Assembly: GCF_003334785.1 (NCBI RefSeq)
Contig: NZ_QOWV01000060.1
DNA length: 1,428 bases
Direction: 5' to 3' (one strand)
Source: Escherichia coli
GTDB lineage: Bacteria > Pseudomonadota > Gammaproteobacteria > Enterobacterales > Enterobacteriaceae
Shown piece by piece: positions 1-1,428 of this stretch. The translations under genes were made by a program, and so were the position numbers. Under the pieces are notes generated by a model that was not told where the DNA came from, made no database searches, and worked only from the letters and a program-made list of their open reading frames with translations. Numbering within the stretch: the first letter of the stretch is position 1; the number at the start of each line of letters is the position of its first letter.

Positions 1-119
1 GTGGAGGTGAAGGCCACGCCGGGTTCATGAAGATGGCGGTCCAGGGTTTTCAGGGCCCGTTGAATGAGGCTGCGCTCGCCGGGCGTCATCTCTCCGGGCA
101 GAAAGGAAAGCTGTTGCAT
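1..119 (-). CDS. RadC-like JAB/MPN-domain protein (YeeS/YfjY/YkfG family), 5' partial: only the N-terminal 39 codons are in the window, the C-terminus lies beyond position 1
   Basis: Manual minus-strand translation from the ATG at 119..117 gives MQQLSFLPGEMTPGERSLIQRALKTLDRHLHEPGVAFTS, open to the window edge. I recognise this as the N-terminus of the RadC-like proteins of E. coli CP4-type cryptic prophages. A purine-rich SD-like stretch GGAGAGAAG (124..132) lies 4-9 nt upstream. An in-frame ATG at 134..132, directly after the upstream stop (TGAATG), is an alternative start. Absent from the ORF track because the in-window part is short. Confidence 0.75.
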   Translation of the reverse strand, partial: MQQLSFLPGEMTPGERSLIQRALKTLDRHLHEPGVAFTS

Positions 120-123
120 TGTA

Positions 124-132
124 CTTCTCTCC
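124..132 (-). promoter_or_regulatory. Shine-Dalgarno-like ribosome-binding site for the RadC-like gene
   Basis: Minus-strand sequence reads TGA-ATGGAGAGAAGTACA-ATG; the GGAG/GAGAAG purine run sits at a suitable distance upstream of the ATG at 119. Confidence 0.5.
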
Positions 133-134
133 AT

Positions 135-608
135 TCAGTCGATGATGCGCATAATGGCGCTGCATTCCGGATGCTGCAGGGCGTAATCCCGCAGCCGGTA
201 ATAATGGACCGTCATGGCATAACACTCCGTACGACAGGCATGATGACTGTACGTCATCAGACAGGCAGCAATGCCGGCAGCTTCCGGACTCATTTCAGCG
301 CGGTTACCGTTCATGGCATTGAACAGTACCCATGTTTCGTCATCATCGTCATCCGGTTCGGGTGCCATAAATGCCCCGCCGTTGTTCAGGGTGTACAGAT
401 TCCAGATACCACCGCAGTAGTCTTCGCACAGACGGTCCATCCAGCCGAAGACACGGGGCTCCAGGGTCACCCACTGTGGAATGAGGCCAAAGTGCTGCGG
501 CCAGAAGCTGATGCGCTGTTCATCAGGGACGAGGGTGGCAACCAGTTGTTGCAGGTCAGTCTCCGGTGCACAGGCCGAGGAGGTGGTGTTCTGAGACAAT
601 GTTTTCAT
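135..608 (-). CDS. Antirestriction protein, ArdB/KlcA family (Pfam Antirestrict-type; YfjX/YafX-like), 157 aa, complete
   Basis: Minus-strand ORF ending at TGA (137..135). Protein from the internal ATG at 608..606: MKTLSQNTTSSACAPETDLQQLVATLVPDEQRISFWPQHFGLIPQWVTLEPRVFGWMDRLCEDYCGGIWNLYTLNNGGAFMAPEPDDDDDETWVLFNAMNGNRAEMSPEAAGIAACLMTYSHHACRTECYAMTVHYYRLRDYALQHPECSAIMRIID. The VPDxxRxxFWPxHFG...PQW, CxxYxGGxW, LxNGG, SxEAAGI, YxLRD and HPE motifs match my recollection of KlcA/ArdB-family proteins. This start is preferred over the track's ATG at 785 because it has a strong AAGGA ribosome-binding site 8 nt upstream and gives the typical family length of ~150-160 aa. Confidence 0.85.
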   Translation of the reverse strand: MKTLSQNTTSSACAPETDLQQLVATLVPDEQRISFWPQHFGLIPQWVTLEPRVFGWMDRLCEDYCGGIWNLYTLNNGGAFMAPEPDDDDDETWVLFNAMNGNRAEMSPEAAGIAACLMTYSHHACRTECYAMTVHYYRLRDYALQHPECSAIMRIID

Positions 609-616
609 GTATGAAA

Positions 617-621
617 TCCTT
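617..621 (-). promoter_or_regulatory. Shine-Dalgarno site (AAGGA) for the antirestriction gene
   Basis: Minus-strand sequence reads TTACAAGGATTTCATACATG; AAGGA lies 8 nt upstream of the ATG at 608. Confidence 0.65.
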
Positions 622-794
622 GTAATGTGAATAAATGAGAGGGAGTAAAGGTCGGGAGCTGGCAACATCACGTTCATCACTGACCGTGATGACCCGGTAA
701 TATCAGGGATGAATGATATTCGGCTGAAATTCCGGACAGCCGTACGCGTAACCGTTCCGGTCACAGACGGATGGCCTGATGCCATTGCCTGTAC

Positions 795-812
795 TCAGTC
801 TGCACAGACTGA
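795..812. repeat. 18 bp near-perfect palindrome tCAGTCTGcaCAGACTGa (candidate operator or short hairpin)
   Basis: Plus strand 795..812 is tcagtctgcacagactga: 8 bp arms (795..802 and 805..812) around a 2 bp centre. No downstream T-run on either strand, so it does not look like an intrinsic terminator. Confidence 0.45.
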
Positions 813-909
813 TTTCTCCGGGACGGTAAAGCAGACGGGTATACCAGGCGCACAGGTCATCATCAGAAATGGAACGACATCCCGGCAGCGCCTTCAGGGA
901 CAGGCTGCA

Positions 910-1428
910 TCAGCGCAGGCTCTCCAGCAGCGTTTCCGCCATCACCCACAATGCGCGGTTGAGCTTAATATCGGTGTCGATGCTGTGAATGGCACGGGTG
1001 TGGATACGTTTTCCTCTGGCACTGCGACCGGAAATCCCGCCTTTCAGCATATTCTCCTGGATGGTCTGATAAGTACTCCACAGGTCCTTACCGTAATCCT
1101 CCCTGCGTCGCGGTGTCAGAATGTCAGCGGTGGTGACGGGCTGATGTTCGTCACCATAACGGTAAGTCAGTGCCGCCTGTGCCAGCGCCTGGCGTGCCGG
1201 TGGCGGCAGAATCAGCGACTGCATGGCATCACGCTTTTCCTCAATCCGGTCAAAAACCCCCACCACCTCGTAAGCCCCTTCAATGACTCTGTCCACCACA
1301 TTTCCCCGGTGCGGAACACGCACTTCCCCCAGAGACTGACCACAGACGCATCCGTTCTGGCAGACGAACCTGAAGTAACCCGGCAGCATCTGGTAGCTGG
1401 AGGTACCGTCATGAGAGTTGAGCAGAAT
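910..1428 (-). CDS. DUF932-family protein (YfjQ/YafZ-like), 3' portion: C-terminal 172 codons plus stop are in the window, N-terminus lies beyond position 1428
   Basis: The track ORF 910..1389 (-) remains open in the same frame up to the window edge. Manual translation of 1428..1390 gives ILLNSHDGTSSYQ, running into MLPGYFRFVCQNGCVCG..., so the track's Met at 1389 is internal. The stop is TGA at 912..910. The NSHDG(T/S)S and FxCxNG motifs fit my recollection of DUF932 proteins, which commonly sit upstream of antirestriction genes in enterobacterial islands. The family label is less certain than the call that it is coding. Confidence 0.7.
   Translation of the reverse strand: MLLNSHDGTSSYQMLPGYFRFVCQNGCVCGQSLGEVRVPHRGNVVDRVIEGAYEVVGVFDRIEEKRDAMQSLILPPPARQALAQAALTYRYGDEHQPVTTADILTPRRREDYGKDLWSTYQTIQENMLKGGISGRSARGKRIHTRAIHSIDTDIKLNRALWVMAETLLESLR

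Follow-up and report, generated by a model that had tools for sequence, protein, structure and literature searches.

The question that this locus raises is what is encoded at its left edge, where the list of open reading frames shows no minus-strand gene. The window, as we call the whole stretch of DNA analysed here, comprises 1,428 nucleotides from Escherichia coli. A preliminary description of it had placed at positions 1-119, with no strand given, a gene of which only 39 codons are present and which the list had missed. We found such a frame on the minus strand. Read from position 119 to position 1, it opens with ATG CAA CAG and continues for 39 codons and two additional bases, with no stop codon up to the window edge, to give the translation MQQLSFLPGEMTPGERSLIQRALKTLDRHLHEPGVAFTS. 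The program that prepared the list drops the reading frames that cross an end, which is the reason why this frame does not appear there.

The rest of the gene was followed in related genomes. The whole window is matched by 4899 E. coli records, the best of which is E. coli TW10722, with 1425 of 1428 nucleotides identical (99.8%) and mismatches at positions 123, 183 and 207. Bases 1-119 are identical, at 119 of 119 nucleotides, to the start of an annotated coding sequence of that strain (WP_001384108.1, JAB domain-containing protein). Extended past position 1 in TW10722, as the preliminary description had proposed, the frame does not meet an early stop codon and runs to 158 amino acids. The gene is intact in this strain; a product of the complete frame would end in ...SFAEHGLL (...HLIIGGSQVFSFAEHGLL). 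The tests described below for the full-length protein were performed with the TW10722 sequence, identical to the window over positions 1-119, and the window itself holds residues 1-39 only.

The full-length protein belongs to the RadC family. The Pfam RadC model (PF04002) matched residues 38-157 with an E-value of 3.7e-44, over model positions 2-121 of 121, and a weak match to Prok-JAB (PF14464) was also obtained (E 3.2e-4). The NCBIfam model TIGR00608, "RadC family", scored 148.4 bits, above its cut-off of 133.85. Among the phage protein families the match was to PHROG 10276, "DNA repair protein", and among the proteins of known structure to the RadC homologue of Chlorobium tepidum (PDB 2QLC, E 1.7e-24). 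These data agree with the RadC-like (JAB/MPN) identity that had been proposed from the first residues. The metal-binding motif, for which a search had been suggested, is complete in the 158-amino-acid protein and reads E57...H107-N-H109-x7-S117-x2-D120. In an alignment of 46 sequences, including homologues of about 41-82% identity, there is no variation at E57, H109, S111, G112 and D120 and almost none at H107, N108, P110, P116 and S117, with H107 and S117 conserved in at least 90% of the sequences.

The AlphaFold2 model of the protein has a mean pLDDT of 89.3 and a pTM of 0.80. In a Foldseek search its best matches were the chains of 2QLC, with TM-scores of 0.86-0.91 (normalised by target), an rmsd of 1.9-2.3 Å and a best E-value of 3.7e-13. 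The next neighbours were weak (E from 4e-3 to about 0.1) and consisted of MPN-domain proteins (EMC8/9 and BRCC36) and cytidine deaminases. EMC8/9 are subunits of the ER membrane complex. The RadC-like protein is thus predicted by the model to adopt an MPN / deaminase-like fold. The weak MPN and cytidine deaminase neighbours are consistent with the placing of JAB within the deaminase-like fold (PMC3239186). According to the model, the part encoded in the window comprises helix alpha-1, which spans residues 13-30, preceded by an N-terminal tail and followed by a linker. The block mean pLDDT is 57 for residues 1-10, which is low confidence, and 86 and 82 across residues 11-30. The JAB domain and all the catalytic residues lie beyond the window edge, where the preliminary description expected the domain, and the Pfam RadC match begins at residue 38.

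Two in-frame ATG codons could serve as the start of the gene. The first, at position 119, is preceded by a Shine-Dalgarno-like GGAGAG (positions 127..132, minus strand, as read from the sequence) located 7 nt upstream. This element falls within the 15-nt gap that separates the stop codon of the antirestriction gene (positions 135-137) from the RadC-like start. The second ATG, at position 89, corresponds to M11, the annotated start of YeeS of E. coli K-12. The codon at 119 is the better start since the GGAGAG preceding ATG 89 directly abuts it. The annotated YkfG and LfgB proteins also carry an N-terminal extension before the conserved core, and in YkfG (MKQLSFLPGEMTP) it is collinear with that of the window protein. 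A start at M11 was rejected for the window copy on the basis of the well-spaced Shine-Dalgarno sequence of ATG 119 and the collinear N-terminus of YkfG, and because the K-12 start results from the yeeR junction described below.

The longest listed open reading frame over positions 1-119 is a plus-strand frame of 195 amino acids (positions 27..614), which overlaps both the start of the RadC-like gene and the antirestriction gene. The idea that it is the true gene has next to no probability in our estimate. It gave no significant family match (best PHROG E-value 0.16), whereas the strong Pfam and PHROG matches belong to the minus-strand products. All 15 E. coli records among the matches listed annotate only the three minus-strand families in this region. 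The substitutions also fit the minus frame. In a comparison with the paralogue ykfG, 17 of 24 differences in the first 39 codons and 70 of 108 over the whole gene fall at third positions of that frame. The plus-strand frame was rejected, from its lack of a family match and from the substitution pattern, as a shadow ORF of GC-rich coding sequence. In the same comparison, the whole gene gave a dN/dS of 0.108 and its first 39 codons one of 0.087, which points to strong purifying selection on the RadC-like gene. The latter result bears on another reading, in which truncation or decay has left the source genome with a remnant whose frame ends soon past the window edge, so that an N-terminal fragment only would be encoded. 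Such decay has precedents: the CP4-type islands are mosaic and decaying, the K-12 gene yeeS has lost ~10 codons from its 5' end where it joins yeeR, TW10722 carries pseudogenes a few genes away (DUF5983, DUF905 and an integrase fragment), and numerous gene calls among the homologues are fragmentary or fused. However, TW10722, with three mismatches in 1428 nt, carries an intact gene of 158 codons, and in 4796 of the 4806 matching E. coli genomes at least one copy extends over 80% or more of the gene. Together with the strong purifying selection, this makes a remnant very improbable, and the near-identical genomes suggest that the gene, which the window follows up to codon 39, is intact in the source genome.

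A further reading is that the window gene is the housekeeping radC (yicR) and not a mobile-element paralogue. The two genes have the Pfam family (PF04002) and the catalytic motif E...HxHx7SxxD in common, and the fold is also shared (TM about 0.9 to 2QLC). On the other hand, the identity to YicR (b3638) is 42% and is confined to the JAB part; the RadC-like protein does not have the N-terminal region of YicR, for which an HhH has been described (PMC3239186). The YicR-type equivalog model PRK00024 gave 158.6 bits, below its cut-off of 180, with only profile positions 88-211 of 212 matched. The position in the genome differs as well: yicR is a core gene between rpmB and dfp, while the window gene is an island gene, located between antirestriction and DUF987 genes in an island adjoining cadC. 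The identity with chromosomal radC was rejected on these grounds, and the chance that it is correct is minimal; the distinction drawn in the preliminary description between the two therefore holds. We conclude with high confidence that positions 119..1 of the minus strand are the start of a gene of the yeeS/ykfG/lfgB type, encoding a single-domain RadC-family JAB/MPN+ protein of ~158 amino acids that is carried by the CP4-type integrative islands of E. coli. The segment at 1..119 is annotated here, from its translation, the 119/119 nt identity and dN/dS, as the 5' end of a gene of the YeeS/YkfG/LfgB group, which codes for the short form of the RadC-like JAB/MPN proteins. Such genes are already known, being annotated in thousands of genomes and having three named paralogues in K-12. 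The names given to near-identical members in other genomes ("JAB domain-containing protein", "RadC family protein" and "DNA repair protein RadC") show that the annotation of the paralogues is inconsistent.

The window contains two other genes, and all three are on the minus strand. Directly upstream of the RadC-like gene, at positions 135..608, there is a complete gene for an antirestriction protein of 157 amino acids, the counterpart of YafX and YfjX (= LfgA), identified by PF03230 (E 3e-37), PHROG 10132 (E 1.2e-63) and the RefSeq annotation. A longer ATG-initiated ORF (135..785, 216 amino acids) is listed, and the RefSeq start in TW10722 corresponds to position 608. The match to the Antirestrict family begins only at residue 21 of the 157-amino-acid form. 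It is followed, in the upstream direction, by an intergenic region of 301 bp (609..909, minus strand). This would be, by its position, the expected promoter region of the antirestriction-RadC-DUF987-CbeA-CbtA string. A sigma-70 consensus promoter and a terminator were looked for in the window and none was found, nor was there an Rfam match. Positions 910..1428 encode the C-terminal 172 codons of a DUF932 protein, the counterpart of YafZ and YfjQ (PHROG 12094, E 2.4e-128; RefSeq), whose N-terminus lies past the right edge. The frame stays open as far as the window end, and its product is identical to WP_001234625.1 of TW10722. No NCBIfam or PADLOC match was obtained for the DUF932 protein, and none of the PADLOC defence-system families matched the RadC-like, antirestriction or DUF932 protein at E ≤ 1e-3.

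The resulting gene order is DUF932 upstream, then antirestriction, RadC-like, DUF987, CbeA-type antitoxin and CbtA-type toxin genes, which are co-directional and tightly spaced. The upstream half of this order is seen in the window, and the downstream half in TW10722 and in the K-12 elements CP4-6 and CP4-57. The order from the antirestriction gene to the toxin gene also occurs in both of these K-12 elements, and the yfjXY-ypjJ-yfjZF genes of CP4-57 have been treated as one operon (PMC5371832, PMC10846083). In TW10722 the genes downstream of the RadC-like gene code for DUF987, a YeeU/CbeA-type antitoxin, CbtA, DUF5983 (a pseudogene), DUF957 and DUF4942, and they are followed by an integrase fragment by cadC. 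This frameshifted fragment is all that separates the island from cadC (locus L001, 4585-4744 and 1-4325). A search with ARAGORN for a tRNA gene as an attachment site gave none in the 17.4-kb TW10722 locus.

The RadC-like protein was compared with the named K-12 proteins, to which its identity is 97% for YeeS, 82% for YkfG, 72% for LfgB (= YfjY) and 42% for YicR. In the case of YeeS (b2002, CP4-44 cryptic prophage), the 97% applies to the shared length, and both genes lie upstream of those for DUF987 (YeeT), CbeA and CbtA. The ancestral start is preserved in the window copy (MQQLSFLPGE), as it is in ykfG, and an antirestriction gene lies upstream. CP4-44 has no such gene, and the annotation of yeeS begins only at M11, the 5' end having been replaced where the gene meets yeeR. 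There are in-frame stop codons upstream of M11 in K-12, and yeeS shares 4 nt with the end of yeeR (locus L002, 6279-6320). This arrangement indicates that the yeeR/yeeS junction is a recombination joint, at which ~10 codons from the start of yeeS were lost along with the antirestriction gene. YkfG (b0247, CP4-6) has the same length of 158 amino acids and a matching N-terminus. Its gene also follows an antirestriction gene (yafX) after a 15-nt gap and precedes DUF987, antitoxin and toxin genes. It is, however, a diverged paralogue, with dS of about 1.1, and in CP4-6 the genes ykfF, ykfB and yafY together with pseudogenes are placed between the DUF932 and antirestriction genes, where the window has 301 bp only. 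LfgB (b2644, CP4-57) shares the catalytic motif and the operon layout, lfgA (antirestriction) - lfgB - ypjJ - yfjZ - ypjF, but its N-terminal 25 residues differ (MMEQSLIPQTPVLPLTAQRTV...). RefSeq names yfjX and yfjY as lfgA and lfgB and describes LfgB as "CP4-57 prophage protease" (locus L004, 7920-8869).

The gene is widespread in the species. It was found in 4806 of 5426 complete E. coli genomes (89%), with a median of three copies and up to 13, nearly always on the chromosome. Homologues at the protein level are encoded on 2328 plasmid records, 1650 of which are predicted to be conjugative, and they are rare in phages (39 of 50,697 records). At E ≤ 1e-3, the representatives in sequence space amount to 40,279 clusters. 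The link to mobile elements that had been suggested is well supported by the CP4-type islands and by these plasmids. The RadC-like proteins of conjugative plasmids (for example IncL/M pOXA-48-like plasmids) are likewise single-domain short forms on transferable elements, with ~59% identity over the JAB domain. The plasmid version matches only from residue 38, so its N-terminus differs from that of the window protein. The partners also differ: those of the plasmid version are DUF3085 and an HTH regulator, and those of the window type the antirestriction protein and the CbtA/CbeA pair. The DUF3085-RadC pairing has been noted previously (PMC12826799). We also observed a DUF4942 gene both near the plasmid RadC-like gene (locus L006, 5433-10520, with DUF3085, an HTH regulator and DGQHR/DndB-like genes) and at the end of the island string (locus L001, 5074-5916). 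Its occurrence in the two settings suggests an accessory-gene pool common to conjugative plasmids and CP4-type islands.

The activity of the protein can be approached from its motif and from its paralogues. With a complete set of motif residues, the RadC-like protein would be an active Zn-dependent hydrolase, in which H107, H109 and D120 would hold the metal while E57 and S117 would assist catalysis, and it would probably be made together with the antirestriction protein. As to the substrate, we lean, at slightly less than an even chance, towards a metallopeptidase whose targets would be regulatory or defence proteins of the host, in line with the reported action of LfgB on MqsA. A protein substrate is favoured over nucleic acid because the LfgB work is the one study in which a close paralogue was examined by direct experiment. 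According to that report, purified LfgB degrades the antitoxin MqsA and alpha-casein in vitro, and deletion of lfgB causes sensitivity to H2O2, acid and heat, which can be complemented (PMC10846083). By its authors' own caveats, the evidence for the protease is weak: the protein was poorly soluble, overnight incubations were used, contamination by other proteases is a source that the authors "cannot strictly rule out", and the portion of the text available contains no catalytic-site mutant control (PMC10846083). The preliminary description stated that the function of such proteins is not established. This is still a fair statement, but an incomplete one, to which the LfgB report, weak as it is, should be added. 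The regulatory circuit of MqsA and LfgB may be inapplicable at the window locus, which has no MqsA motif and whose upstream region shows no relation to its counterpart in CP4-57. The site ACAT(N2)ACAT does not occur in the window at up to one mismatch, and the region at 609..909 could not be aligned to the DNA that precedes lfgA in CP4-57. The transfer of the circuit to this locus was tentatively rejected for these reasons.

In a different reading, which we regard as possible but less probable than proteolysis, the RadC-type JAB domain acts on nucleic acid or nucleotides. It could, for example, process the incoming single-stranded DNA of a transferred element, or serve as a nuclease, beside the antirestriction protein during establishment. 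Iyer et al. argued that the RadC-type JAB domains have no groove in which a ubiquitin-like tail could be held, and they took the domain fusions as a sign of nucleic-acid substrates (PMC3239186, PMC5512222). RadC is fused to HhH, ArdC-N, DnaG-type primase and DinG/Rad3-type helicase domains, and in the helicase fusions it is positionally equivalent to a 3'-5' exonuclease (PMC3239186, PMC5512222). The occurrence of cytidine deaminases as fold neighbours after the RadC and MPN proteins, the strong bias to conjugative plasmids (1650 of the 2328 plasmid matches) and the adjoining antirestriction gene agree with this reading. An earlier overproduction of YfjY resulted in a mutator phenotype, as mentioned in the LfgB paper (PMC10846083). 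In contrast, the literature searched contains no biochemical demonstration of nuclease activity, proteolysis is the only activity reported for a close paralogue (PMC10846083), and the short form does not have the HhH DNA-binding region of YicR. As newer functional work on the RadC proteins of mobile elements, the literature searched gave only the LfgB paper, the predictions of the Aravind group and the DUF3085-RadC co-occurrence.

The finding itself is ordinary, as it recovers a gene that an ORF lister omits at the edge of a window. It adds nothing new on the function of RadC, and provides one example in which an intact ancestral N-terminus is combined with tight coupling to an antirestriction gene. 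The RadC-type JAB proteins are enriched on conjugative elements beside antirestriction genes, and protease and nuclease functions have been put forward for them as competing proposals. We speculate, with a chance that we put well below even, that the short-form RadC-like protein is an effector of establishment or counter-defence that works with the antirestriction protein, its JAMM site cutting a specific host regulator or defence protein, or processing the transferred DNA, when an island or plasmid enters or is induced. If this is true, a gene family carried by ~89% of E. coli genomes and by more than 2000 plasmids would acquire a defined role.
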